NCBI GenBank assembly: GCA_038874655.1 | Contig: JAVZBY010000009.1 | Location: 1 to 43,155 of the forward strand | DNA from: Candidatus Woesearchaeota archaeon | GTDB lineage: Archaea > Nanobdellota > Nanobdellia > Woesearchaeales > GW2011-AR15 | DNA: 43,155 nucleotides | Direction of reading: 5' to 3' | Shown here: positions 3 to 37,062 of the stretch, piece after piece | Numbering within the stretch: the stretch's first letter is position 1 | Layout of the letters: every line of letters starts with the position of its first letter | Translations under genes and position numbers: made by a program | Notes under the pieces: generated by a model | The model's input: only the letters and a program-made list of their open reading frames with translations | The model's database searches: none | Told to the model about the DNA's origin: nothing

Positions 3-518
3 TTATCTGGTGTTTTGCCTGATTTGGTTTTAAGAGGAATAAAAAAGGTTTGGACTTCCCCATCAATCAGAGAAGAAGAAAAAGGAAAAAGAATAGAGTA
101 TTATTTTGGCAATATACCATTAAGGTTATCAAGTTTTGTTGAATGGTATGTTGAAAGATCATTAAATGGAGAATTTACGGATTATAGATTCAGGATTATT
201 GATGCCAATGTAAAAGGTATTAGAGAAAAAAGATTAAAAGAATATCCTGAAAATGAAGTTGTTGTATGCACAATAGAAGGGATTTTACATTCATTTGATT
301 GTAAACTTTATGATCCAAAGATTTCATTTTTATTTGATTTAGATAAAGAAAGTATGGATGAAATTATTGCTGGTAGATTTGTTTTAGTTCCTGGTTTATA
401 TATAGGTTTAGAACAAAATAACTTATATATAAAACAGCCGAAACCTTTAAAAATAGAAATATGCAAAAATTGTGCAAATGATTACCTAAAAAAATTTGGA
501 TATGAATTAATAAAATAA
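3..518 (+). CDS. Hypothetical protein, probably 5'-truncated by the window edge
   Basis: Frame is open from position 3, upstream of the TTG at 15; C-terminal CxxC (ICKNC); no family recognised. Confidence 0.6.
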   Translation, partial: LSGVLPDLVLRGIKKVWTSPSIREEEKGKRIEYYFGNIPLRLSSFVEWYVERSLNGEFTDYRFRIIDANVKGIREKRLKEYPENEVVVCTIEGILHSFDCKLYDPKISFLFDLDKESMDEIIAGRFVLVPGLYIGLEQNNLYIKQPKPLKIEICKNCANDYLKKFGYELIK

Positions 519-553
519 AAAATTTTTAAAATAATCAATTTCTAAGAAATTAT

Positions 554-1216
554 ATGTCTATTAATCATGAATTTATAAAAGAGATTTGTAATTATAATAT
601 AGTCCTAGTTGCAGTCACAAAAAATAGAACAATTGAAGAAATAAAAAATCTTGTTTCATTAGGAATTAAAAATATTGCAGAAAACAAAATTCAAGAAGCA
701 GAAAAAAAATATTTTTTATTAAAAGATTTTTTAAAAAGTAATAATGTAAAATTTCATTTTATAGGACATTTGCAAAAAAATAAAGTAAAAAAAGCTGTTT
801 TAATGTTTGATGTTATTCAAAGTGTTGATTCTTATGAATTGGCTTTTGAATTAAATAAGAGAGCATTTGAGATCAAGAAGATTCAAGAAATTTTTATTCA
901 AGTTAATATTGGAAAAGAAAAACAAAAATTTGGTGTTGAAAAAGAAAAATTATTTGATTTAATTGAAAAAATTAAAGATTTGAAAAATTTGAAATTAAAT
1001 GGCTTGATGTGTATTGCTCCTTTCTTTGATGATGCTGAAAAAACAAGACCTTATTTTAGAGAAATGAAATTTTTATATGATAAAATTAATAATAAACTAT
1101 CTAATGAAAAGAAAAAAATTGATTTTTTATCAATGGGAATGACAAATGATTATAAAATTGCAATAGAAGAAGGAAGTAATATGGTTAGAATTGGAAGAGG
1201 TCTTTTTTTAGATTAG
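554..1216 (+). CDS. yggS: YggS/PROSC family pyridoxal phosphate homeostasis protein
   Basis: LVAVTK, ENKIQE, HFIGHLQKNK, LSMGMTNDY and GSNMVRIGR motifs. Confidence 0.95.
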   Translation: MSINHEFIKEICNYNIVLVAVTKNRTIEEIKNLVSLGIKNIAENKIQEAEKKYFLLKDFLKSNNVKFHFIGHLQKNKVKKAVLMFDVIQSVDSYELAFELNKRAFEIKKIQEIFIQVNIGKEKQKFGVEKEKLFDLIEKIKDLKNLKLNGLMCIAPFFDDAEKTRPYFREMKFLYDKINNKLSNEKKKIDFLSMGMTNDYKIAIEEGSNMVRIGRGLFLD

Positions 1217-22147: not shown

Positions 22148-23971
22148 ATGCAAACAAAATTAAATCCTAATGAAAATGAAAAATTAGAAAATAAAAACAA
22201 TGAAAGTAATGAAAATAATTTTGATAATATAATTGATAATAAAAAGACAAATGAAAAAAAAGATAATGAAAATAACAAACCTATTGCGTTAGAATTAGCT
22301 AAAAAGCAGAGAGAAATTTCAATTGCTGAATTTTTTGAGAAAAATAGACATTTGTTAGGATTTGATAACAGAAAAAAAGCATTGTTAACTACAATAAAAG
22401 AAGCTGTTGATAATTCTTTAGATGCATGTGAAGAGGCAAAAATTCTTCCTGAAATAGTTGTTATGATTACAGATATGGGTAATTATAGATATAGAGTTTT
22501 AATTGAAGATAATGGCCCTGGAATTGTTAAAGAACAAATTCCAAATATTTTTGCTAAATTACTTTATGGAAGCAAGTTTCATCGCTTAAAACAAAGTAGA
22601 GGACAACAAGGTATTGGAATTAGTGCTTCTGTAATGTATGGACAATTAACTACTGGAAGACCTGCAAAAATAATTTCTAAAATTGGGCCTAATTATCCTG
22701 CATATGAGATTGAATTAAAATTGGATACTAGTAAAAATAAACCAATTATTGTATCTCAAAAAGAGATTGAATGGCATAGAGATCATGGAACTAGTGTTGA
22801 AATAGATTTGGAAGGTGATTATTTAAAAGGTTCTCAATCTGTTGATGAATACTTAAAACAAACAGCAATAATAAATCCACATGCCACTATTATTTATCAA
22901 CCTCCAAATGGAAGCCAAATTATGTTTGTAAGAGCAACAGAAGAATTACCAAAAGAAGCTAAAGAAATAAAACCACATCCTTATGGTGTTGAATTAGGTA
23001 TGTTAATGAAGATGCTCGAGAACACAGAATATAGAACTTTACAATCATTTTTAATTAATGAATTTTCAAGAGTCGGAAGTGGAACTGCAAAAGAGATATG
23101 TGAACATGCTTTTTTATTGCCTAACACAGATCCAAGAAAGATGAGTAGAGAAATGGCTGAAAAATTAATGGAGGGAATTAAAAAAACAAAAATAATGAAT
23201 CCACCAACAGACACAATTTCTCCAATTGGAAAAGAGCTATTAGAAAAAGGGTTAAAAAAGGAGATTAATGCTGAATTTTATACCTCAACAACAAGACCTC
23301 CTGCTGTATATAGAGGAAATCCTTTTATTGTTGAAGCTGCTATTGCATATGGAGGTAATTTGCCAGAAGAAGAACCAGTTGAAGTATTAAGATTTGCTAA
23401 TAGAGTTCCATTGCTTTATCAACAAGGTGCTTGCGCAATAACAAAAGCAATTACAACAACAAATTGGAAATCTTATGGATTAAAACAAAGCACAGGAAGT
23501 TTACCAATTGGCCCGTGTGTTATTCAAGTCCATATAGCATCTGTTTGGGTACCTTTTACAAGTGAAGCAAAAGAAGCTATTGCTCATTATCCTGAAATAA
23601 TAAAAGAAGTAAAGCTTGCATTACAAGAAGTTGGTAGAGAATTAGGCAAATATTTGAGTAAAAAACAAAGATTAAAACATGAATTAACAAAAGTTGATTA
23701 TATATCAAAATATCTACCTCATGTAAGTTCTGCATTACAAGAAATATTAAAATTAGATGAAAATGAAAAACAAAGATTAGAGCAGCATTTAAGAGTAGTT
23801 TTAGAAAAAACAAGAAGCGTTAAGATGGATGAATTAGAAGAATTAAAGAAGGATTATGGGCCAAAAATAAAAAGAGAATCTATTGAGGACTATGAATATA
23901 TAGAGAATGAAGATGAAGTTTATGAAGAAGACAATAGTGAAAAAAAGAAAATCAGAAAATTTGGATTTTGA
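22148..23971 (+). CDS. top6B: DNA topoisomerase VI subunit B
   Basis: [36 protein letters not shown]. Confidence 0.97.
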
Positions 23972-25589: not shown

Positions 25590-25690
25590 GGCCTAGTAGC
25601 TCAGCTTGGATAGAGCGGCAGCCTTCTAAGATAATGCATAAATGCATCAAAGTCAGCTGAAGGTCGGGGGTTCAAATCCTCCCTAGGCCA
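25590..25690 (+). tRNA. tRNA-Arg(TCT) with 26-nt intron (25629-25654)
   Basis: GGCCTAG/CTAGGCC acceptor; GCAGC-CT-TCT-A|intron|A-GCTGA; GGGGG-TTCAAAT-CCTCC. Confidence 0.92.
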
Positions 25691-25801
25691 TAATCAATTT
25701 CCATTCTTAAACTTTAAAAAAAAGTATGGTTTTATTTATAGTATTTATAAAGTTTAAATTATTATATTTAAAATATTTGTGCTTTAAATTGTAAAGATTA
25801 T

Positions 25802-25930
25802 GCCACGGTCGCATAATGGTATTGCGAGGGTCTCGAATATAAAATATATGCAAAAAAATTATGTGAAAAGATTAATTATACAGAAAACCCTTGCCGAAAG
25901 GCATTCTCGGTTCGAATCCGAGCCGTGGCG
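25802..25930 (+). tRNA. tRNA-Ser(CGA) with 48-nt intron (25838-25885)
   Basis: GCCACGG/CCGTGGC, G73, long variable arm TGCC-GAAA-GGCA, AGGGT/ACCCT anticodon stem. Confidence 0.92.
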
Positions 25931-26045
25931 TTTTTTTTATGTTTTGCGATAGCAAAACCTTTTTACGGAGTAAAAAGATTTTTGATTAAACTTTTGTTTA
26001 AAAGTTTAGTTCTGAATCCGAGCCGTGGCGTTTTTTTTATGTTTT
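25914..26045 (+). repeat. Exact 32-bp direct repeat of the tRNA-Ser 3' end and T-tract (25914-25945 and 26014-26045)
   Basis: gaatccgagccgtggcgttttttttatgtttt twice, period 100 bp. Confidence 0.95.
25941..26008. mobile_element. Three-hairpin REP/MITE-like insert
   Basis: Perfect stems gttttgc-gata-gcaaaac, ctttttac-gga-gtaaaaag and taaactttt-gttt-aaaagttta. Confidence 0.55.
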
Positions 26046-26105
26046 AATTTTCTTTTAGTTATATTTAATTAGTTTAAGATCTTAATATTTTTAGTAATAT
26101 AAGAT

Positions 26106-26660
26106 TTAATAAGTTTTTTTTGCTAATTCAATATATCCTTCTGGAATGACAAATTTTCCGTTTTCTATCAAATATCTATAGGGTAAAATTACTTCTTGAT
26201 ATTTGCCAATTTTTATTTTTAATTTTTTAAATTTCATTTTTTCTATTGGCAAACCATGTATTATTTTCCAAGCTACATATGCAGCTGTATTAGTAGACAT
26301 TTGTACTTTACCTAAATTTCTTGAAGGATAATTTAATTTATTAGTTAATTCTTTTTTTGTCCTTTTTTGAGGTGGATAATCTCCTAAAATACCTCCAATT
26401 ATTAGATAATCAAATTTATCATTTGGTGTTAAGGTTTGTTTAGCAAATGGATCTAAAACACATGCATTTTTGAAATTTAATTTTTCAATTTTTTCTTTAT
26501 AAATGGTTCCATAATCTTTTAATTTCTCACTTGCTTTATCTGTTTTTATATTAGTAAAAATAATGTTTTCTTTACCTATTAATTGTGAGGCATGTATATA
26601 TTCTAATAAAGACCATTTCCATAATCTTTTATCTAAATGCTCTATTATTATTTTTGTCAT
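26106..26660 (-). CDS. Sfm1-like (DUF431) SPOUT methyltransferase
   Basis: IIEHL..W..LEY, IIGGILGDYPP..RT, RNLG..QMSTNTA, LPYRY. Confidence 0.85.
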   Translation of the reverse strand: MTKIIIEHLDKRLWKWSLLEYIHASQLIGKENIIFTNIKTDKASEKLKDYGTIYKEKIEKLNFKNACVLDPFAKQTLTPNDKFDYLIIGGILGDYPPQKRTKKELTNKLNYPSRNLGKVQMSTNTAAYVAWKIIHGLPIEKMKFKKLKIKIGKYQEVILPYRYLIENGKFVIPEGYIELAKKTY

Positions 26661-26739
26661 TAAAAAAAGAAAGTTGAAAACTTTTATAAATATGTCAATT
26701 TTTTATAATTATTAAGTAAAATCAATTTGTAAAAATAAT

Positions 26740-26863
26740 GCGGGGGTAGCCAAGCGGCTAAGGCAGTCGCCTGCAGTGCTGCCGAATGCTATGGCTGTGT
26801 AGAGCCGAAAGGCAATGACATTTAGACAGCGACGATTCGAGGGTTCGAGTCCCTCCCCTCGCT
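26740..26863 (+). tRNA. tRNA-Cys(GCA) with 51-nt intron (26777-26827)
   Basis: GCGGGGG/CCCTCGC, U73, GTCGC-CT-GCA-G|intron|A-GCGAC, GAGGG-TTCGAGT-CCCTC; T-tract follows. Confidence 0.92.
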
Positions 26864-26916
26864 CTTTTTTTTTTATTATTTTATTAAAAATATTAAAAAA
26901 CTTAAAAAAATAGAAA

Positions 26917-27406
26917 ATGGAATTTTCAATTGAAATTGGATTAATTATTTTATTTGCTTTATTGAGTGGTGTTTTATCTGTAAGATTTAGAATTCCAACT
27001 GTTTTAGGACTTATTTTCATTGGTGCTTTAGTAGGAAACTTAAATCTTATAAAAGATCATAAATTATTAGATATTGTCCTAGAAATTGGAGCTATTTTAT
27101 TATTATTTACTGTAGGTATAGAATTTAATTTAGAAAAGTTAAAAAAATTTGGGTTAAGTAAATTCAAAAGCTTTTTTTATGGTCAATTATCAGGTATTAT
27201 TGAACAAATTTTTGGTTTAATTGGATTTTTCTTAGTTTTCATCGCTAAATTTGTCTTATGCTTTAGCTTTTGCAGCAGGTGCTATGGTTTTTGTAATTGT
27301 AGAGGAATTAATTCCAGAATCACAAATAGGAGGTAATTCTGATTTTTCAACTCTAGGGGTTATTTTGGGTTTTACTATGATGAGGATCTTACTTTCTTTT
27401 TATTAA
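26917..27406 (+). pseudogene. Chimeric pseudogene: CPA2 cation/H+ antiporter 5' part fused to a frameshifted ZIP/ZupT 3' part
   Basis: IPTVLGLIFIGALVG..LLLFTVGIEF, then FFYGQLSGIIE and, after a frameshift near 27257, YALAFAAGAMVFVIVEELIPES. Confidence 0.85.
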
Positions 27407-27462
27407 TATTTTTTACTTTTTAGTACTAAACATGATATAAATTTAAATATAACTAATTGTTA

Positions 27463-29130
27463 ATGTCAAATATGTCTATTAATTTAAAACAAAAAGAAGA
27501 TGATTTATTTGGATTAAAAGGTTTAAGTCTAGAACAATTATGTTCAGAAATAGATAAAGAATTATCCGATAGTTTATGGTGTGAAAATTTTGAGGAGAGT
27601 TTTTTCTATGCTTTATCAAAAGAATTAAAAAAAGTTCCTTATTTATTAACTGGGTTTATTAATAGTCTTTTTGCCAGAGTAAATCCTGTAATTATGGATA
27701 ATTCTTTTCCTAGACCTTTTTTAGATTTAGAAACAAAAGAAATAAAAACTAAATATGATGACCCTGGGAATTTAGCAAGAATAATATCTAATCTTACAGG
27801 AATTTCTTCTCAAGAATTACCTAAATGGTTAACACATAATTTAGAACAATACAAAGAATATCATCAATTACGAATATATGCATTAACACAAGAATTAATA
27901 AAAAAATTAAAAGAAAATAAAAATAAGTCTTATTTGGTTGATAAACTAGAAGGTTTGATAAATAAGTTTTATAGATATAAAAAAATAGATTATTTAGATT
28001 TAAATAGTATTATTAGAACACTTAATTCTAAAAAAAATAATCCTCCTATAAATAATATACATAGGTTAATAGTTACATCCATAATTACATTAGCATTAGC
28101 TGGTCTTAGTGGTGTTATGACTTATAATTCTGTATATAATAAGCTTCAAGAATCTGATAAAAATAGAACTTATGAAATTGCAGAACAAATACCTCCATCA
28201 CTAGATCCAATGCATGGTGCTGTTCCTTTATCTATTCAAATAGGGAATCTATCTGGAATAGCAGATAGATGTTATATGTCTTTATATGATGGGGAAGGTA
28301 ATTTTAATGACGAATTTCCTAAATTTTTAGATAATCTTTCAACAGCAAAAGAACAAGCAAAAATAGTTATTTCTGTATATAGAGACCCAAATCTTCAAAG
28401 AGCAGTTTCTTCAATAGAAATAGGTTTTGGAAGAATAGTAAATAGTATTAGCGAAAGTATAAGAAATGAAGTTTATAATGAATGTGATGATGAAGGCCAT
28501 TGTGAGAGTCAGTGTAAAAAAAGGGTCTTTATTCTTAGTAAAAATCAAGAATCTATAACTTGGGGTTTTGGAGAAATGTGGTATGGACTAGAAACAATTG
28601 TTAATGGGAAACCTTTTAAAGATATTACTTTTCATGAAATAAAACCTGGACCTAATGCTAATAATTCTATTGTTCTTATTTATAAAAATGCCGGTTCATC
28701 ACTTCTTATAATTAGAAATGACTTAGAAGATTATGAAAGAAAAATTGCAAGTTATCCGGATTTTGAAGAAAAAGTAGATTATAATTGCATTTCTTTAAGT
28801 GCTTCTTGGGGGCCTAAGGAGGAAATAAATAAATTAGAACCTTATATAAACAATATTACTAGTTTAAACAGAATTCCAGAAAAGCTAGAAAAATTTTTAG
28901 ATTTATCTGAAAAATATGAGGAAATGCTAAAAAACGCTAAGTCAGATAAAGAAAGAGCTAGGATTCTAGGTGATTATTCTATAGAACTACATAGAATATT
29001 CGGGTATCCAGGAGAGGGACATTTATTTCAAAGAGAAATTAACCTTATTTCATATGGTGCTGGAACGCTGATATTTTTTTTTGTTTTAGGTGGGGGTTAC
29101 ATTATATATAAAACATTTATAGAGTTTTAA
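27463..29130 (+). CDS. Hypothetical membrane protein with two TM helices and a large loop
   Basis: Long ORF; hydrophobic segments LIVTSIITLALAGLSGVM and GAGTLIFFFVLGGGYII; CDDEGHC motif. Confidence 0.75.
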   Translation: MSNMSINLKQKEDDLFGLKGLSLEQLCSEIDKELSDSLWCENFEESFFYALSKELKKVPYLLTGFINSLFARVNPVIMDNSFPRPFLDLETKEIKTKYDDPGNLARIISNLTGISSQELPKWLTHNLEQYKEYHQLRIYALTQELIKKLKENKNKSYLVDKLEGLINKFYRYKKIDYLDLNSIIRTLNSKKNNPPINNIHRLIVTSIITLALAGLSGVMTYNSVYNKLQESDKNRTYEIAEQIPPSLDPMHGAVPLSIQIGNLSGIADRCYMSLYDGEGNFNDEFPKFLDNLSTAKEQAKIVISVYRDPNLQRAVSSIEIGFGRIVNSISESIRNEVYNECDDEGHCESQCKKRVFILSKNQESITWGFGEMWYGLETIVNGKPFKDITFHEIKPGPNANNSIVLIYKNAGSSLLIIRNDLEDYERKIASYPDFEEKVDYNCISLSASWGPKEEINKLEPYINNITSLNRIPEKLEKFLDLSEKYEEMLKNAKSDKERARILGDYSIELHRIFGYPGEGHLFQREINLISYGAGTLIFFFVLGGGYIIYKTFIEF

Positions 29131-29257
29131 ATGTCCAAATTTAAAATAGTTTGATTTTTAACAAAAAGGTTAGAATTTTACTAAAAAACTACAACCAAAT
29201 TTAAACCTATTAAAGCATTTAAATATTTATTCTATTTTTATAGTATTGGTGATATAA

Positions 29258-29935
29258 ATGAGAAATATATCAAAAATAATATTTTTAGCTTTTTTAGCTT
29301 TGTTTTTTGTATCTGCATGTCAAATTAACAATCCAGAAAATAATATAATAAAAGAAGAAAATGAGAGATATGATTGCTTAAATGGCTATTCTTGGAATGA
29401 AAAAATTGATGCTTGTATTAAAAATTTAGAATTAGATGAAAGTCAACTTAAAGCAGTACAAATTGCTGTTGCACCATTAAGTTATAAACCTGTGCATATA
29501 GAGAGAGTTGAGACATTAAGATGTCCAGGCTGTTTTATAATTACATTAATATATAATAACAATCAAATTAGAGATATAAAATTAATAAATTGGAAAATAT
29601 CTAAAGAGGATATACAATTTTGCAGTGAAGAAGAAAAAAAAGGAGTTATTTGCACTTTAGAGTATATTCCTGTTTGTGGAGATAACGGAAAAACATATAG
29701 TAATAAATGTGCAGCTTGTGGAAGCAAAGAAATAGATTACTATTACTTAGGGGAATGTAATGAAACAAAAAATAAAGAAACAAATCAAGATTATGAGATT
29801 GATGAAAAAAAGAGAGATTGCAAAGAATGCCCTTTATTAAGTCAACCAAGCCCTGATTTCTGTAAATACGGAACTATTGTTGCAGGAGAAATTGATGAGT
29901 GTGGTTGCCAAGGCCCACCAAAGTGTGTTTATTAA
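29258..29935 (+). CDS. Predicted lipoprotein with a Kazal-type protease inhibitor domain
   Basis: Lipobox-like FVSAC; CTLEYIPVCGDNGKTYSNKC...GEC; SD GGTGA. Confidence 0.85.
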   Translation: MRNISKIIFLAFLALFFVSACQINNPENNIIKEENERYDCLNGYSWNEKIDACIKNLELDESQLKAVQIAVAPLSYKPVHIERVETLRCPGCFIITLIYNNNQIRDIKLINWKISKEDIQFCSEEEKKGVICTLEYIPVCGDNGKTYSNKCAACGSKEIDYYYLGECNETKNKETNQDYEIDEKKRDCKECPLLSQPSPDFCKYGTIVAGEIDECGCQGPPKCVY

Positions 29936-30003
29936 GTGTGTATAAGTATAAAAGTAAATAAAAATTTTATAAGATATTTTTTAGAAAATAGGATATTATG
30001 AAA

Positions 30004-30120
30004 CTAATAACTTTTTATTATTTCTTTGTTATAATCCATAAACCATGAGTTTTTACACTCATCTGAACAAAATATTGTATCATTTGTTTCTTTTCTACAT
30101 GTTCTACATATATTTACCAT
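30004..30120 (-). CDS. 38-aa zinc-finger microprotein (TRASH/FCS-like), absent from the ORF track
   Basis: MVNICRTCRKETNDTIFCSDECKNSWFMDYNKEIIKSY; TTTAAATA box about 25 nt upstream. Confidence 0.7.
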   Translation of the reverse strand: MVNICRTCRKETNDTIFCSDECKNSWFMDYNKEIIKSY

Positions 30121-30172
30121 AAAAGCTAAATCTATTTTGTTATATTTAAATCTTTTGTTTTTTAACCACTTA

Positions 30173-30964
30173 TTAGTAGTTAAATTTATTAATGTTTTTT
30201 TGTTGGTTATTTTTTAAAAAGAATTCATGTATTTTTCCTCTTTGCCAATCATATAATAAAGAACGAGCCATTCGTTTTAAATCAGGAGTATTTCCTTTTA
30301 ATAATATTTTTTTTGAGATTGCTATTTTTTCTAAAAAGGTATAAGAATCGTTTTCATAGGTTAGGTTATAGTATTTTTCAAACAATTTTGGTTGTAGGTC
30401 AATTAGTCTCATTGCAAAATATTCTGGTTCTTTTAGATGCTCTGGATTTTTTGAACCAATAATTACTTGTTTTTCAATACTTTTTTCTGGATCTTTTTCA
30501 TCAAATGGCAAAACACCTGGCGTGTCTATTAATTTTAATTTACCTCTTTTTACAAATTGAATTCCTTTTGTATGGCCAGAAACAGGACTTACAGAAGCTG
30601 ATTTTTGCCCTTTTAATAAGTTTATAACTGAACTTTTTCCCACATTTGGATAACCTAAAATTCCTATTACGCTTTCCTTACCTTTAACTAATTCCATTAT
30701 TTTTTTATAAAGAATTGTGCCACCTAATTTTTTTGTAGATGAAACAAACACACTAGGTTTAAAATTTTTTTTAATCTCTTCTGCTTGTTCTTTTGTTATT
30801 AAATCACATTTATTTAACACATAAAGTAATTTTTTATTCTTCTGTTTAATTTTTAATTCTATTTCTTTGTGTCTAGTTAATTCTGGCATTCTTGAATCTA
30901 AAATTAGTAATAATAAATCTGATTCATCAATAACTTTATTTACTAAATTCCAATAATTTGCCAT
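30173..30964 (-). CDS. Circularly permuted ribosome biogenesis GTPase (RbgA/YlqF family)
   Basis: G4 NKCD precedes G1 GYPNVGKSS, G2 GHT and G3 DTPG. Confidence 0.92.
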   Translation of the reverse strand: MANYWNLVNKVIDESDLLLLILDSRMPELTRHKEIELKIKQKNKKLLYVLNKCDLITKEQAEEIKKNFKPSVFVSSTKKLGGTILYKKIMELVKGKESVIGILGYPNVGKSSVINLLKGQKSASVSPVSGHTKGIQFVKRGKLKLIDTPGVLPFDEKDPEKSIEKQVIIGSKNPEHLKEPEYFAMRLIDLQPKLFEKYYNLTYENDSYTFLEKIAISKKILLKGNTPDLKRMARSLLYDWQRGKIHEFFLKNNQQKNINKFNY

Positions 30965-31107
30965 GTTTTATTTAAAGAATTTTTTTACAATTATAAAATA
31001 TACTTTTTAATTAATTTCTAGTGTTTAAATTAAGTATCATTTTAATATACATTTTTAATATACTAATATACGAAAATTTTAAATAGTAAGAGTTTATTAT
31101 AAGTAAT

Positions 31108-31776
31108 ATGACTATTTGGACTCCTAAAGCAGATGTTGGTATTAAAAGCCAATGGGCGCCTCAAAAAGATGGTAGATGGGATGAGTCCAATATTTTAGTT
31201 TATAGCACACAAATAAAGCAAGAGAGAATAATTCATTTAGAGAATGTTTATAGATATATGTGGCATTATTTTAGTGAAGAAGGTTGGAATGCTTCTGAAA
31301 GTATTGGAGATGTTGATGATAACAAAAGATATGAAGTTTTTTTTGGTGAATATAGGGATAGTCAAGGTCATAAAGAAATAAGATTTTGGTGGAGAATGCA
31401 AAAAAATTGTGGTGGTATTGCTGGTGTTCATAACTATTTTTTATACAAAGTTTATGTTGATGTTTTAACAACTAATATGAAAAGAATTGAAATGACTTAT
31501 AAAGGTAAAAAAATAAAACCTTATGTTGGAGAATTTATATTATGGTTTAATTCAATCTTAGTTTTAGATAGAAATGGTTGGTTTAAAAAAGATGGTCCTT
31601 TAAGTGTTTTTGCAGATTTCTTCCCAAGAATGATATATAAAGATAGGATAAGGGAACAAGAAATTGAATTAAGAAGGTTTTCTGAAAGATTTATTGAAGA
31701 TTTAAAGTTCTTTATTGGTTTGAATAGATTAAATGCTGTCAGACAACCCCTAGAACCAGAAAAAGAATGGTTCTAA
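31108..31776 (+). CDS. Hypothetical protein, Trp/aromatic-rich
   Basis: 222-aa ORF with TTTAAATA about 25 nt upstream; no family recognised. Confidence 0.75.
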   Translation: MTIWTPKADVGIKSQWAPQKDGRWDESNILVYSTQIKQERIIHLENVYRYMWHYFSEEGWNASESIGDVDDNKRYEVFFGEYRDSQGHKEIRFWWRMQKNCGGIAGVHNYFLYKVYVDVLTTNMKRIEMTYKGKKIKPYVGEFILWFNSILVLDRNGWFKKDGPLSVFADFFPRMIYKDRIREQEIELRRFSERFIEDLKFFIGLNRLNAVRQPLEPEKEWF

Positions 31777-31842
31777 GAATATAGAAACTAAAAAAATAAT
31801 TATAAAAAATTAAAAAACAAGATATATAATCTTATTTTTATC

Positions 31843-34800
31843 TTATTTCAGAACATAGCTAAAGTCAATTGTACTATTATCATTTAAAGTTATTCTATAA
31901 TTGTATCTATATGCTAAAAATCCTATTAAGTTCTTTGTATTTATGTTAAATATCCATAGCTTATCTTTGTCATCCCATCTAAATTCATTAAAAGGTGTGG
32001 TTGAAATAATTTCTTCTTCTGTTATCTCTACAAAAGGATTAGTTAAAGAACTTTTTAATAATTTAAATTCCTTAACTATGCCAGGTGTATTAATTGAATT
32101 TCCATTTGCATCACAGACCCTAAATTTTGCAGGGACAGTGCTTTTTTGTTTGAAAACACTTGTACCATCTGCTCTAATTGGAGGTAAAATTTGATGACCT
32201 GGCATATCTAGACATAATCCATCTGGAGCATATATTACTCTGTAATTTAATAATGTCTCTCTTTTATTACCCACATTATCAAAAGCAAAACAATTTATTG
32301 ATTTTTCTCCAACACTATTTAAGTCTAATTCTTCACATGCTTGATTAAATAAACCTGAACCATAATCAACTGCGTTTAAAGTTATTGTTGCATTTCCATT
32401 TAATATTATTGGATTTGGCTCTACTATTGGATTTAAAATTGGTGCTTTTTTGTCAATTTTATTTCCTTCAACAGTTATTGGATAAACACAATTTCCAACT
32501 AAATCACAAACTTCTTCATTTGAAAATGCAACTGCATTATCTGTTTCTGTTTCTTCAGAAACATCTGTTTTTAATTTAATCTCTTGTGTTTCTGGACCAG
32601 AACCATAATCACTATAATTACATAAAATTTCTACATCTTCTTTGTGCCATAAACCATCTGGCTCTTCACATGACAATAATTCAGGGGATTTTTTATCTAC
32701 TTTAATATTATAAAAAGGCCCAGCTATAACACAATTATTTAATTTATCACATACATTAAAAGTATTTGTAGATGCATTGTTTGTTTCAATTCCAATATCA
32801 ACAGTAGTAGTTAAATTGAAAATATCATAATCAATACCAACTCCATTATCAGCAACAGAACAGAGTATCAAGACATTTTCATTATTCCAATTATCATCAG
32901 GCATTTGGCATTCAAATGTAGGCGATTTTCTATCTATTTTAAATTTAAAAGGACCAATAATTACACAATTTCCAGCATTATCACACACTTCTTTAGTGTT
33001 TGTTTCTGCATTATCAGTTTCAATACCTTGCTCAATATTTGTGGTTAAAACAATTATATTATCTCCTGAAAATCCTGAAAAATGATCAGAAACATTACAA
33101 ATTACATTTACATTATCATTATACCATTTATATTCTGGAATCTCACACTCTACAATAGGAGCACTTTTATCAATTTTAATTATATCATATTTAATTTCCT
33201 CAACATTTCCATAATCACTAAAATTAATATTTTCATAAGTTCCATTTCCAAATCCACTATTATCAACACTTAAATACCTAAGATAATTAATTCCTTCATT
33301 TGATATTAGAATTTGATTTCCTTGATGATTTGGTTGACATATATTTTCATTATCTATGCAATAATAAGTTGCTTGAACACCGCATATATTATCTATAGAG
33401 CTTAAATTTACTATAATATCTGTGTTTTGCCATTCATTTGGAACATTACTTGTAGTTATTGGTGGTTCTTGATCATGTTCATCTATTAAATTATTACAAT
33501 CATTATCTTTTCTATCGCAAATTTCTGGGTTTCCAGAAAAGATATCAGCATCTAAATCATTACAATCTCCGCATGTTAAGCTATAATTATCTAAGTCATT
33601 ATCTTCTTCACAAGATACTTGACAGGTGTTTTGTGTACATGTAAAAAGAGCTGAACAATAGTTATTTACAAATTCTGGAAAATCACCAAAGATATTTACA
33701 GAACAGCCAGAACCACAACCATCATTTGGACATATAGTTGGCTCACAATCTTGGTTTTGTGTATCATCAAAAATAGGATTTCCATTTTCATCACAAATAG
33801 CACATATTCCTGCATCATTTCCAAAACTTGTGCAATTACTCCAAACGCCATAGAAACAAGTTCTTGTTCCTAAGCATAATCCTGAACCACATTCACTTAT
33901 TAAATTTTCATCAATTAAATTATTGCAATTATTATCCTTATTATCACAAGATTCATTATTATTAGGAAAGTTTAAAGGATCATTGTCATTACAATCACAA
34001 AGTTTACCTGCTCCATCCTTATCATTATCTAATTGATCTGGATTAAGAACAAAAGGACAATTATCACATGCATCTCCGTATTTGTCTGTAAGAGAATTAT
34101 AATCCCTATTAAAATTTAATTTAATATCATCAAAATAAGCATATTGCCCATAAACTCTAGAATAATCCCAACCACCTATTTTTAATCTAAACCTTGAAGA
34201 TGAACTCATTGCTGTTGTTGGCTCTGATCTAACTAAAACACCATTTTCCCAATATTCTATAGAATTTCTCTTTACTACAAATTTAAAGTTCACATACTCT
34301 CTTGGCAAAGTTCTGGATTGTTCTGTTGAACTAGTTGAGGATAAAATAAACCTAATTCTAGAACCATAAGCAGCATAACCAACACCAACATTATTATTTG
34401 TGGAAGCATCTTGAAGCAATAACAGCATTTCTGCTGTAGAGGCAGGATTAAATTTCCATTTTCCTTCAATTGTTATGTTCTGCCATACTGAATTAACAAT
34501 GTCCCTGGAAACCAAATAAATATGATAATCTGGACTTCCTCCTTTTCCGAGAATATTAAATCTAGCTTCTTGGTTTATTTCTTCAAAAACACTATCCCCA
34601 ACTTTATCAAACATAGGCCATTTTGTTGTGTTTAATAAGTTATCATTAAAATTATCTTCAAAAGAACTTTCTAATCTATCAGAATCTTTTTGGTCTGGAT
34701 TATATGCATAAGGACAATTATCACATACATCACCTATACCATCTTGATCAACATCTTTTTGGTTTGGATTATATAGATAAGGACAGTTATCGCAAACATC

Positions 34801-36075
34801 TCCGATCCCATCTTTATCATCATCATTCTGATCAGAATTAAATATATAAGGACAATTATCGCAAACATCACCAAAAATATCATTATCAATATTTAATTGG
34901 TCTGGATTATATATTAAAACACAATTATCATTTCCAGTACATTCATTTGAATAAAAGTTTTTTCTGCAAATACCATCATGATCAATATCAGGAAGCCAAC
35001 CATAAGGAATAATAAAAGGATAAATGTCTTTTCCTGTATCAAAAATAGAATAATTTGTATCTCCAATACTATCACCATCTATATCTTTTCCTTTGTAATC
35101 ACTCCAATAATTACCACCATTAGGATAACCATCGTCAAAATAATTTTGAGTATTAGAATAATAATTTCTTAATTGGTTTATATTATCAATAAAATTATTA
35201 TGGTATATTTTATTATTAGAAGAATATCTATCTAAATAAACACCATAAGAAGAGTTTAAAATATTATTTTTTGTTATTAAATGCCTTTGTCCTAGAGAAG
35301 TATAAATTCCAAATGTTGTTTTGTTTATCTGATTGTTTATAATTGTAATATTATAACTATTATAAGTAAAAATTCCATAATTTACATTTTGAATCTTACA
35401 ATTTTGGATAGTGATGTTTTTTTTACTATACAAATAGATTCCATTCTCTGTAGTAGGTTGTATTACATGATCATTACAATCCAAAGTTATAGTGTCATTT
35501 GTTATTTCTATTGTTTCCATTATGTTTGTTGTTAATGTACATTTTTTTTGCATATTATCCCAAATTCCTATCTTTACACAATCTCCACCTGTAGAATTAT
35601 CCCTAATAAACTTTGTAGAGGGTTTATTTTGAATCCAAACATGTTTCGGATAACCTTCTATTGAGAAATTTATTTTTCCTTGGCAATCTTCACAATCTTT
35701 TTCAGCAGGAATGGTTTGCTTATTTTCATAAGTATTTTCATACAAGTAATATTCTTTATCAGGAATTAATCCATAAACTGAGAAATCTGTTTTCCCTTCT
35801 AATTCATCTATTAGCATATCAACTCTTTCAATTTCATCTGTGCCTAAAACCAAAACACTCATTTTTACGCTTTTATTTGTTTCAATAAAAATTGCAGGCG
35901 TCTTAGTAATAAAAGTTGTATTCAAAGTATCTAAAATTTCAAAATTCGGAAAATCTATTTTTTCAACTTTTTCTAGGTTTTCATTTGTATCAAAAAATTC
36001 ATTTTCCTTTTGCTGTGCAAAAGAAAAACTTAAAAAAAATATAACTAAAAAGAAATAGATTGTACTTTTTTTCAT
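31843..36075 (-). CDS. Large secreted multidomain protein: NosD/beta-helix, TSP3 repeats, ConA/LamG-like insert, MopE-like Cys repeats, Ig-like repeats, PxKF-like C-terminus
   Basis: [14 protein letters not shown] signal at ATG 36075 after GGGGGGT; GNYWSDY; CDNCP..NPDQ.D.D.DG; DCND....P...E.CD.KDN.C; KID...P repeats; VPAKF. Confidence 0.85.
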
Positions 36076-36237
36076 TGTAGACCCCCCGAAAAGAATATAT
36101 AATATATATAAGTATATATAAGTTATATAAAAAGATTGCTGAATTTTATATTTAGATAAAAATTTAATAATATAATAAGATATTATAATAAAAAAGTAAT
36201 GAAAAAATACTTGCAAAAAAATTAAAAAAAGTGAATA

Positions 36238-36310
36238 AGCCTCCGAAGGGAGTTGCACCCTCGACCTGCGGATTACAAGTCCGCCGCAATAGCTACTATG
36301 CTACGGAGGC
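36238..36310 (-). tRNA. tRNA-Thr(TGT), intronless
   Basis: GCCTCCG/CGGAGGC, GCGGA-CT-TGT-AA-TCCGC, GAGGG-TGCAACT-CCCTT. Confidence 0.9.
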
Positions 36311-36463
36311 ATATATAAAAATTATTAAACTAATAGGGTTTTGAATTTTATTTATATTTAAAAAAGTTTTCATAGATATTTATAAAGATTTAATTTAAAA
36401 AATTTTAAAAAAACAAAAAGAAAAAAAATTTATTATAAGAAAATGATTTTTAGAATTATTTTA

Positions 36464-36622
36464 TCAATTTTTCTTATGATTTTGATAACATGTCCTACAA
36501 TAGACAGGTTTGCCTTCTATAGGTTTAAAAGGAACTTCTGTTTCCTGACCACAGTCAGAGCAAATTGCTTTATGCATTTGCCTGTTGAAGTTTCTAAAAC
36601 CTTGGCTTTTCATATATGCCAT
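36464..36622 (-). CDS. CxxC-x17-CxxC domain protein (52 aa), absent from the ORF track
   Basis: RQMHKAICSDCGQETEVPFKPIEGKPVYCRTCY; SD AAGGTGA. Confidence 0.92.
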   Translation of the reverse strand: MAYMKSQGFRNFNRQMHKAICSDCGQETEVPFKPIEGKPVYCRTCYQNHKKN

Positions 36623-36645
36623 TATTTCACCTTATATATATTTAA

Positions 36646-36698
36646 TGAAAATTCATAACCTAACTAACTCTTATAGAATTAGCTGTTATAAATTATCA
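36646..36698 (-). promoter_or_regulatory. Long hairpin in the predicted 5' leader of the CxxC-x17-CxxC gene
   Basis: About 22 bp including three G-U pairs that form only on the minus (mRNA) strand; TTTATAAA box near 36722-36729. Confidence 0.55.
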
Positions 36699-36836
36699 CA
36701 AATTAATGAAAAAGAGAGATATTTATAAATGTATTTAAATTGCATTTTTTCTAATTATAGAAAATAATTTAAATTATTTTAGTTTTCGGCTTATATAAAA
36801 ACCTTATAAAAAAATTGTTAAAGATATTATTAAAAT

Positions 36837-36932
36837 GGGACCTTAGCTCAGCCTGGGAGAGCACTACGCTGAAGATAAAATATTATAAAATCTGAAACGT
36901 AGGTGTCCGGGATTCAAATTCCCGAGGTCCCA
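36837..36932 (+). tRNA. tRNA-Phe(GAA) with 22-nt intron (36875-36896)
   Basis: GGGACCT/AGGTCCC, CTACG-CT-GAA-G|intron|A-CGTAG, CGGGA-TTCAAAT-TCCCG. Confidence 0.92.
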
Positions 36933-36964
36933 TCTATTATTATAAAATTTAATGAAATAAATAA

Positions 36965-37062
36965 GGGCCCATAGCTTAGCCTGGTGGAGCGCTCGACTGA
37001 TATCCAAAAGCTATAAAAGGCAAGAAATCGAGAGGTCGCCAGTTCAAATCTGGTTGGGCCCA
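36965..37062 (+). tRNA. tRNA-Ile(GAT) with 24-nt intron (37003-37026)
   Basis: GGGCCCA/TGGGCCC, CTCGA-CT-GAT-A|intron|A-TCGAG; probably co-transcribed with tRNA-Phe; T-tract follows. Confidence 0.92.

Follow-up and report, generated by a model that had tools for sequence, protein, structure and literature searches.

The tRNA genes of the window

The window, meaning the whole 43,155-nucleotide stretch of DNA analysed here, contains six tRNA genes detected by Rfam, five of which carry an insertion after nucleotide 37. The source is a tiny hot-spring archaeon of a Woesearchaeal (DPANN) lineage, and its genome is 97% complete. Intron boundaries were set by a strict cloverleaf parser and by reading by eye, and both agree with an earlier sequence-only reading of this DNA. 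That reading had placed the introns at 37/38 and assigned them central helices of 3, 2, 3, 3, and 2 of four pairs (in the order Arg, Ser, Cys, Phe, Ile), which the parser reproduced when pairing was scored between nucleotides 32–35 and intron positions −6 to −3.

The five intron-bearing genes lie on the + strand, each with a T-run downstream. tRNA-Arg(UCU) (25590..25690; Rfam 53.1 bits) is composed of exon 1 (25590-25628), a 26-nt intron (25629-25654), and a second exon starting with nucleotide 38 at 25655. Its central helix, CTTC/AAAG, has three of four pairs with a C35·A mismatch and G(−3) at 25652; the inner helix has 3 bp, and the anticodon stem contains a single mismatch, G27·A43. tRNA-Ser(CGA) (25802..25930; 42 bits) possesses a long variable arm and a 48-nt intron (25838-25885; nucleotide 38 at 25886, G(−3) at 25883), with a central helix of two pairs (CTCG/ACAG) and an inner helix of 4 bp. 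The 51-nt intron of tRNA-Cys(GCA) (26740..26863; 46.7 bits) occupies 26777-26827, followed by nucleotide 38 at 26828, with G(−3) at 26825. Its central helix (CTGC/TTAG) has three pairs counting one G-U, the inner helix has 1 bp, and the intron harbors a k-turn or box C/D-like module as read from the sequence.

Further downstream, tRNA-Phe(GAA) (36837..36932; 49.9 bits) has a 22-nt intron at 36875-36896, with nucleotide 38 at 36897 and G(−3) at 36894. Three pairs of its central helix (CTGA/TCTG) are formed around an internal U33·U mismatch, and the inner helix has 1 bp. tRNA-Ile(GAU) (36965..37062; 55.6 bits) contains a 24-nt intron at 37003-37026 (nucleotide 38 at 37027, G(−3) at 37024), with two central pairs (CTGA/CAAG) and an inner helix of 2 bp. 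The sole intronless tRNA gene of the window, tRNA-Thr(UGU), is located on the − strand at 36238..36310 and was detected by both ARAGORN and Rfam (63.4 bits). Five intron-bearing genes in six had been taken as a high density; genome-wide, 24 of the 40 tRNA genes found bear introns, so the window is not special.

Anatomy and conservation of the splicing motif

None of the five window introns forms the strict archaeal BHB (hBHBh′), in which each splice site lies in a 3-nt bulge and the flanking helices have at least 2 pairs. Section 4.8 of a preprint places introns with at least three central pairs of four at the splice boundary in a relaxed BHB class (bioRxiv 10.64898/2026.10.13.758758); by this definition Arg, Cys, and Phe are relaxed BHBs, and Ser and Ile fall below it (2/4). 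The central helices are degraded, but their pairing is not due to chance, because the five introns together form 13 of 20 central pairs, versus 6.66 ± 1.71 for a partner 4-mer placed randomly within the same intron. None of 2000 random draws reached 13 pairs, and moving the 3′ partner over offsets of −6 to +2 yields just 3 to 8.

The two halves of the motif are unequally preserved. All five introns have a clear 3′ bulge, enclosed by the anticodon stem and the 32:(−3) pair, whereas the 5′ bulge is closed by 35:(−6) in Phe only. As previously counted, G at −3 faces C32 in all five introns and A occupies −4 in four. The outer helix had also been described as weak in Phe and Ile. This does not hold for the exon-side outer helix, the anticodon stem, which has 5 bp in each of the two genes. 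The weakness lies instead in h′, the helix on the intron side, with 1 bp in Cys and Phe and 2 bp in Ile. In all five genes, MFE folding of the intron together with the anticodon arm gives no BHB, so the motif is not presented by the RNA on its own. No alternative splice register with a valid cloverleaf gives four of four pairs for Arg, Ser, Phe, or Ile, and alternative excision registers in tRNA-Cys would require a variable arm of 11–22 nt.

Tabulation of helix pairing across genomes shows that the relaxed pattern is lineage-wide. The canonical set contains 90 distinct introns, 19 in the source genome and 71 in 16 related genomes of its order; it is limited to parser-readable tRNAs detectable by ARAGORN or Rfam, and its orthologues are not independent. 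Pairing decays from 32:(−3) (89 introns) through 33:(−4) (77) and 34:(−5) (69) to 35:(−6) (59). The 32:(−3) pair, which covaries (C-G 77, U-A 11, U-G 1, C·A 1), is the most conserved element of the motif. Only 33 of the 90 introns have a 4/4 helix, with 48 at 3/4 and 9 at 2/4, and the lineage therefore clearly tolerates mispaired central helices; in the source genome, 6 of 20 canonical introns have the full helix. Moreover, orthologous introns of Phe and Ile vary in length and sequence and keep the pattern at the 3′ end. The TCTG partner of Phe recurs in five relatives (G001, G002, G003, G026, and G035), and the Ile orthologues span 2/4 to 4/4. The comparison by which these motifs would count as unusually relaxed is with statements in the literature.

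The position-wise decay shows which part of the motif is protected by selection, and the same pair is kept by eukaryotes. The sequence-only reading had termed C32:G(−3) eukaryote-like. This anticodon–intron pair is real, as it is found in all five window introns and in 89 of the 90 lineage introns with C-G/U-A covariation, but in the archaeal central helix it is no more than the outermost pair, and the likeness therefore reflects a degree of erosion rather than a different system.

The splicing endonuclease

The genome contains one EndA-family gene (PF01974/PF02778/TIGR00324). Its 209-aa product is composed of PF02778 (residues 45-105) and PF01974 (115-201), and its match to TIGR00324 covers positions 9-176 of 177. 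The N- and C-terminal domains and the catalytic Tyr/His/Lys are thus joined in a single-gene unit, as in the α4 type. Y145, H155, and K186, as well as the 9-residue Tyr–His spacing, are invariant in 120/120 homologues. The closest sequence match is the catalytic subunit of Nanoarchaeum equitans (3iey_A, 3.7e-42), and the top fold match found by Foldseek is M. jannaschii EndA (1a79_A; TM 0.91 on target, rmsd 2.1 Å, 37% identity, 174 alignment columns for 171 residues), with which it shares domain order, catalytic residues, and Tyr–His spacing.

Other architectures were considered and rejected. For the (αβ)2 type, there is no separate β subunit gene: NF007085 and PF01974 match the sole EndA only, and a profile search agrees. 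The ε2 type is a three-unit polypeptide of ~390 aa, in contrast to the single unit of 209 aa found here. In addition, no insertion corresponding to the L1/L2/L3-type specificity loops (CSL, ASL, NEQ/ARMAN loop) is present near the active site. The Tyr–His interval has no gap relative to M. jannaschii, whereas NEQ205 is six residues longer there. In NEQ205, the L3 insertion (residues 90-98) is described as surrounding the catalytic His (PMC3488258).

EndA is probably a homotetramer according to modelling, with a predicted association through the C-terminal strand as in the M. jannaschii α4 enzyme. The complex model of four copies of residues 45-209 scored 0.52 versus 0.01 for the best control. 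Of the calibration proteins, 20 of 30 with a solved structure of one-chain pairs and 1 of 23 with a single-chain structure reach the mark for such scores, and the EndA run differs from this calibration in using its own alignment and four copies. Across the runs, contact agreement is at least 77% and partner pLDDT at least 75, and the interface is formed by strand 200-209; the score may stem from the similarity of EndA to the known α4 tetramer structure 1A79. The acidic loop ahead of the last strand, which we take to be the α4 tetramerisation loop (L10), is full length in EndA, and the NEQ205 alignment has a gap of two residues at this loop.

α4-type EndA is described as a strict BHB cutter in the account of PMC5829648. 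In contrast to that description, the natural substrates here are mostly not strict BHBs, and their sequence motifs argue against a narrow strict-BHB specificity of this EndA.

Recognition of the relaxed motif

The reading we favour, and hold to be rather likely, is that these are functional tRNA genes with relaxed BHB motifs, or bulge-helix-loop-like ones as judged from the sequence, which are cut by a permissive BHB-type EndA anchored on the 3′ bulge. In the retained 3′ half, an anticodon stem of 5 bp is followed by a 3-nt bulge with the 3′ splice site and by two or three central pairs counted from that end (32:−3, 33:−4, often 34:−5). Losses are frequent in the intron-side helix and in the central pairs adjoining the 5′ site, which therefore lies in an internal loop. 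One active site of the tetramer would dock on the well-formed 3′ bulge, and the fixed tetramer geometry would set the second four helix steps away, on nucleotide 37/intron +1. After cleavage at these predicted sites, the exons would be joined by RtcB, which is present in the genome. Permissiveness of the endonuclease, as the sequence-only reading had proposed, is a fair inference because no better register exists, no further gene, with or without an intron, was found for any of these anticodons, only a minority of canonical helices are complete, and 32:(−3) covaries. Against it stand the described strictness of α4 enzymes, an EndA without broad-specificity loops, MFE folds that do not form the BHB, and the 2/4 pairing of Ser and Ile.

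The ruler-type enzyme proposed in the same reading fares less well. Eukaryotic TSEN uses a ruler mechanism, measuring from the tRNA body. The source genome also contains introns in the D-loop (Lys-CUU, Arg-CCU), the T-arm (Ser-UGA), and the T-loop (Glu-UUC, Glu-CUC), with boundaries set by identity to other mature tRNAs, and a pure ruler could not place the cuts of these five. All five have a 4/4 helix. Moreover, the genome has a single EndA gene, and a search of it for a body-measuring subunit of eukaryotic type gave no PF12928 (Sen54-type N2-domain) match. The window introns are like eukaryotic pre-tRNA introns in their 37/38 site, the 3′ bulge closed by 32:(−3), and the weakly structured 5′ site; unlike the TSEN system, introns at other positions here need a body-independent motif.

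A body-assisted, eukaryote-like mode might nevertheless act at 37/38, though we regard it as unlikely. EndA would also bind the anticodon stem or tRNA body, perhaps via its Lys-rich N-terminal tail, so that 37/38 introns need only the 3′ bulge and 32:(−3), the 5′ cut is set by distance, and a full BHB is required elsewhere only. The fall of pairing with distance from the 3′ bulge is in line with this, as is the rarity of 4/4 helices in canonical introns (33/90 vs 11/15 non-canonical, Fisher p = 0.011 with relatedness ignored; 6/20 vs 5/5 in the source genome). The comparison is small, several of its tRNA-Ile D-loop introns probably belong to one family, and weakly structured non-canonical introns would go undetected. 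Relative to M. jannaschii, EndA has a 44-residue Lys/Glu-rich N-terminal extension, and a basic extension missing in the M. jannaschii alignment occurs in all 120 close homologues (median 28 aa; K+R 0.29 vs 0.18 in the core). This tail is variable (10 to 96 aa), of low complexity, and modelled with lower confidence (block-mean pLDDT 59-78 for residues 1-40). In addition, neither a Sen54-type N2-domain nor a Sen15-like gene was found in the genome, and the anticodon stem already constitutes the outer helix of a normal BHB, which makes a separate mode unneeded.

It is still less probable that the specificity comes from an undetected partner. This could be a structural subunit of very divergent sequence, an RNA chaperone, or L7Ae on the k-turns of introns, with the motif folded beforehand for an otherwise strict enzyme. 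The MFE folds agree with such help, N. equitans, whose catalytic subunit matches best, uses a second subunit, and several introns contain a k-turn-like module, with fibrillarin encoded in the genome; yet the module is found in one of the five window introns, that of Cys. No second real match emerged when 33 diverse EndAs, combined into a profile, were compared with the 4584 six-frame ORFs of the whole genome, in agreement with family searches, the lone weak match being antisense within a 504-aa gene. Exactly one EndA match was found in 37/40 relatives and in 116/121 genomes sampled across the phylum; a further genome of the phylum sample (G093) has two EndA genes of 160 and 157 aa. The full-length acidic loop, gapped in NEQ205, also speaks against a partner. 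That the genes are decaying, with introns poorly spliced or unspliced and the cell dependent on other copies or a host, is hardly credible: DPANN genomes are reduced, and the Rfam count of tRNAs is low in some relatives with complete genomes (14 in G035), but the five anticodons gave no second gene copy in the search, the exons are intact cloverleaves of 42–56 bits, the covarying pattern holds in 17 genomes, and a T-run follows each gene.

The favoured reading of a permissive EndA has parallels. Relaxed BHB and bulge-helix-loop introns are reported from Crenarchaeota, N. equitans, and ARMAN in the accounts of PMC4090602, PMC5829648, and PMC12397907. As described there, those introns are likewise protein-spliced with one good bulge-helix unit and the other half degenerate, and the genomes likewise combine many canonical and non-canonical introns with multi-intron genes. 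In contrast, erosion here mainly affects the canonical central helix while non-canonical introns keep 4/4, and a single α-type gene replaces the (αβ)2 or ε2 enzymes. The link between α4-type DPANN EndAs and heavily disrupted tRNA genes was already drawn by Kaneta et al. 2018 (PMC5829648), who describe α4-type DPANN EndAs with an L3 loop and whose set includes one Woesearchaeota genome. Unlike the L3-bearing enzymes, the EndA here and its 120/120 close homologues have no insertion at the L3 site relative to M. jannaschii. The parts worth testing are the absence of loops in the enzyme and the looser pairing at canonical sites.

In the usual view of motif and enzyme co-evolution, α4 or α′2 enzymes are matched with strict BHBs, and relaxed motifs occur where the enzyme is (αβ)2, ε2, or loop-bearing. 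The lineage bears on this rule, as it offers many natural relaxed substrates (57/90) together with an EndA resembling the textbook strict type. A broader reading, which we advance with considerable doubt, is that in Woesearchaeales, and perhaps most Nanoarchaeia, a loop-less α4-type EndA splices canonical introns in a half-motif mode and requires the full BHB only at non-canonical sites. The anticodon stem, the 3′ bulge, and 32:(−3)/33:(−4) may alone be read, and the 5′ cut may be set by enzyme geometry or by the basic N-terminal tail on the tRNA. If true, this archaeal mode would parallel the eukaryotic anticodon–intron-pair mode with a single subunit and would contradict the rule under which a relaxed motif needs either a heteromeric enzyme or a specificity loop.

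Standard tRNA finders overlook three or four of the 40 tRNA genes here and far more in the relatives, and DPANN tRNA complements are consequently under-called.

Degraded central helices in the window and across the order

The window is contig C9 of the host assembly, which comes from a hot-spring community and spans 1.26 Mb in 17 contigs, with 97% completeness and 24–25% G+C. Rfam places six tRNA genes in the window, alongside genes for topoisomerase VI, an archaeal helicase, and RNase J. ARAGORN run without introns detects only Thr-UGU among them, and the other five genes (Arg-UCU, Ser-CGA, Cys-GCA, Phe-GAA, and Ile-GAU) are interrupted directly after nt 37 by introns of 26, 48, 51, 22, and 24 nt, respectively, as determined with Rfam and a strict cloverleaf parser. 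Direct sequence reading and this purpose-written parser give the same boundaries, which are those placed by the sequence-only reading of this DNA. A brute-force scan of the pre-tRNAs for bulge-helix-bulge (BHB) motifs and an ARAGORN-based enumeration of splice sites were too permissive, and the strict parser was used instead.

In the BHB central helix, tRNA nucleotides 32–35 face intron positions -3 to -6, counted from the 3' end. This helix is eroded in the window introns, as had been claimed, pairing at 3, 2, 3, 3, and 2 of 4 positions in Arg, Ser, Cys, Phe, and Ile. The C32:G(-3) pair is invariant in all five introns, and A(-4) is present in four. The sequence-only reading, otherwise correct on these introns, erred in describing a weak outer helix in Phe and Ile: the exon-side helix (the anticodon stem) has its full 5 bp in both, and the weak element is the intron-side helix, with 1 and 2 bp. 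The window introns together form 13 of 20 pairs, whereas random placement of the partner 4-mer within the same intron yields 6.66 ± 1.71; none of 2000 random draws reaches 13, and shifts of the 3' partner between -6 and +2 leave only 3 to 8 pairs. The central helix of these introns is thus real, beyond chance, but degraded.

No other splice register restores a complete helix. Among all excisions leaving a valid cloverleaf, none yields four central pairs for Arg, Ser, Phe, or Ile; alternative Cys registers need a variable arm of 11–22 nt, and none with a normal variable loop is fully paired. ARAGORN with introns and Rfam find no second gene for any of the five anticodons in the whole assembly. 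Minimum free energy folding of the anticodon arm together with its intron does not produce the BHB in any of the five window genes, and thermodynamics alone therefore does not explain recognition. Judged from sequence, the window introns are real, being predicted to be functional, spliced introns of a relaxed BHB- or bulge-helix-loop (BHL)-like form. A perfect 32-nt direct repeat lies at window 25914–25945 and 26014–26045, 100 nt apart; it duplicates the tRNA-Ser-CGA 3' end together with the T-run of that gene, and resembles a scar left by an integration event, or by a small insertion, at the 3' end of the tRNA.

The same pattern extends over 90 distinct canonical introns (those at 37/38); the host genome supplies 19 of them, and 16 relatives within its order supply the other 71. 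The 90 introns derive from the 97 of 111 ARAGORN intron calls that were parsed (14 were not), after removal of two wrong parses (a 30/31 intron in an Ile gene and a questionable 'AAA' tRNA) and five same-locus duplicates. Pairing is found in 89 introns at 32:-3, in 77 at 33:-4, in 69 at 34:-5, and in 59 at 35:-6; the central helix has four pairs in 33 introns, three in 48, and two in nine. The 32:-3 pair is C-G in 77 introns and U-A in 11, so the conserved element is a pair and not a G. The full hBHBh' motif (four central pairs with an inner helix of 2 bp or more) is present in 1/19 introns of the host genome and 16/71 of the relatives. The five window introns are the low end of a continuum, and the relaxed pattern is common to the whole genome and lineage, here the host and the 16 relatives of its order. 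We found no description of such a position-wise pairing gradient in Woesearchaeota in the literature searched. AT drift as the cause of the erosion is rejected, since intron G+C and the number of central pairs are uncorrelated (Spearman 0.12, p = 0.27). The commonest mismatch is an intron A opposite C or G, 36 of 66 (G.A 21, C.A 13, A.A 2), a tally from which no conclusion is drawn.

Introns outside the anticodon loop and the tRNA complement

In the host genome, D-loop introns are located in Lys-CUU and in Arg-CCU, where the intron is a 15-nt BHL; Ser-UGA has a T-arm intron, and both Glu tRNAs have T-loop introns. All five of these non-canonical introns have a complete central helix. They are not placeable by measuring from the tRNA body, and the enzyme must therefore act in a motif-driven manner. 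The ruler-type endonuclease raised by the sequence-only reading finds no support in its strong form. A milder, body-assisted recognition at 37/38 is possible. With the boundaries of non-canonical introns set by identity to other mature tRNAs, complete helices are found in 11/15 non-canonical and 33/90 canonical introns (Fisher p = 0.011, orthologous introns counted separately), a contrast that is suggestive only, as weak non-canonical introns would be missed. No description of this contrast between the two kinds of site was found in the literature searched.

ARAGORN with introns detects 36 tRNA genes in the host genome, 20 of them interrupted, to which Rfam adds Ser-UGA. BLAST with relatives' genes, together with one weak Rfam hit, revealed three more that ARAGORN missed: Arg-CCU (contig C3, ~160598–160686, minus strand), Glu-UUC (C8, ~503–620, plus strand), and Glu-CUC (C7, ~23105–23233, minus strand), the last with both a canonical and a T-loop intron. 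The total is 40 tRNA genes, 24 of them interrupted; passages of a review (PMC4090602) give ~15% intron-bearing tRNA genes as the archaeal average and ~48% for Crenarchaeota. For these three genes, Rfam yields at most one sub-threshold partial hit, that for Arg-CCU. It detects only 14 tRNAs in G035, a complete relative in one contig, and 20 in G026, a relative of 20 contigs and 99% completeness, and many disrupted tRNA genes must still be hidden in this order.

In the host genome, tRNA-Gly-UCC (C8:27458–27555, minus strand) combines a 14-nt anticodon-loop intron with ~10 extra nt in the variable region, around which no BHB-like motif was found. At C12:8702–8808 (plus strand), a tRNA-Ile gene carrying the UAU anticodon has a fully paired BHB intron; its presence suggests that a UAU tRNA, and not a modified CAU tRNA, decodes AUA.

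The splicing endonuclease

The host genome contains one gene for EndA, the tRNA splicing endonuclease, located on contig C1 and encoding 209 aa that include both endonuclease domains, N- and C-terminal. Searching 4584 six-frame ORFs with a profile built on 33 diverse homologues identifies no real second EndA-like frame. A weak PF01974 match at C1:181839–181946, considered as a second subunit, was rejected: it contains stops and lies antisense within a 504-aa gene. Among 40 relatives, 37 have exactly one EndA match, a single relative has two, and the remaining two lack any; exactly one is found in 116 of 121 genomes of the phylum sample. Both the nearest EndA homologues and the 80 best genome loci carry the labels Woesearchaeota, Nanoarchaeia, or Nanoarchaeota, except for some records that depositors assigned to uncultured Methanosarcinales. 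G093, a genome of the same class in a single 0.5-Mb contig, contains two endonuclease frames, 160 and 157 aa long, a layout resembling the α+β arrangement of N. equitans.

Among solved structures, the best sequence match of the host EndA is the N. equitans catalytic subunit. In that subunit, the region of the catalytic His is longer by six residues and the loop that precedes the last strand is shortened, whereas M. jannaschii EndA aligns with the host protein without gaps at both places. The Tyr, His, and Lys residues and the 9-residue Tyr–His spacing are kept in 120/120 close homologues. The AlphaFold model (mean pLDDT 91.5) has M. jannaschii 1a79_A as its best structural match. Four core copies are predicted to associate via the C-terminal strand (0.52 vs 0.01 for the best control), a prediction that may simply echo the tetramer structure already solved. 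The sole lineage-specific feature of the protein is a basic, low-complexity N-terminal tail of 10–96 aa. RtcB and fibrillarin are also encoded in the host genome, and the RtcB ligase gene (C8:1252–2571, minus strand) lies within ~1 kb of the intron-bearing tRNA-Glu-UUC gene (C8:503–2571 for the pair).

According to passages of Kaneta et al. 2018 (PMC5829648), only (αβ)2 and ε2 enzymes were known to cut non-canonical introns, and EndA specificity is tied to the inserted loops L1, L2, and L3; L3 corresponds to residues 90–98 of the N. equitans enzyme in the part of Hirata et al. 2012 (PMC3488258) that describes it. The same passages of Kaneta et al., whose genome set took in one Woesearchaeota genome, link the L3-bearing α4-type enzymes of several DPANN lineages to greater disruption of tRNA genes. 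As a general inference, an α4-type enzyme that is permissive in DPANN has therefore already been published there (PMC5829648). In the literature searched, which for Kaneta et al. 2018 means text passages, no α4-type enzyme lacking all three loops was found. The tRNA introns and EndA of this lineage form a good experimental system for the rule of motif–enzyme co-evolution.

A module shared by several introns

The introns of Cys, Leu-UAG, Leu-CAA, elongator Met, and Trp share a module that combines a short GC hairpin with one box-C-like and one box-D-like word, and the same module is present in the orthologous introns of five relatives. The module-bearing loci are window 26777–26827 and, elsewhere in the host genome, C2:224846–224989, C3:186941–187078, C8:9183–9306, and C5:57040–57173. 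Rfam returns no snoRNA family match; by its sequence elements, the module is a putative k-turn or C/D-box-like structure. In Leu-CAA and Met, its 5' flank is complementary to anticodon-loop nucleotides 32–36, and would compete there with the BHB helix.
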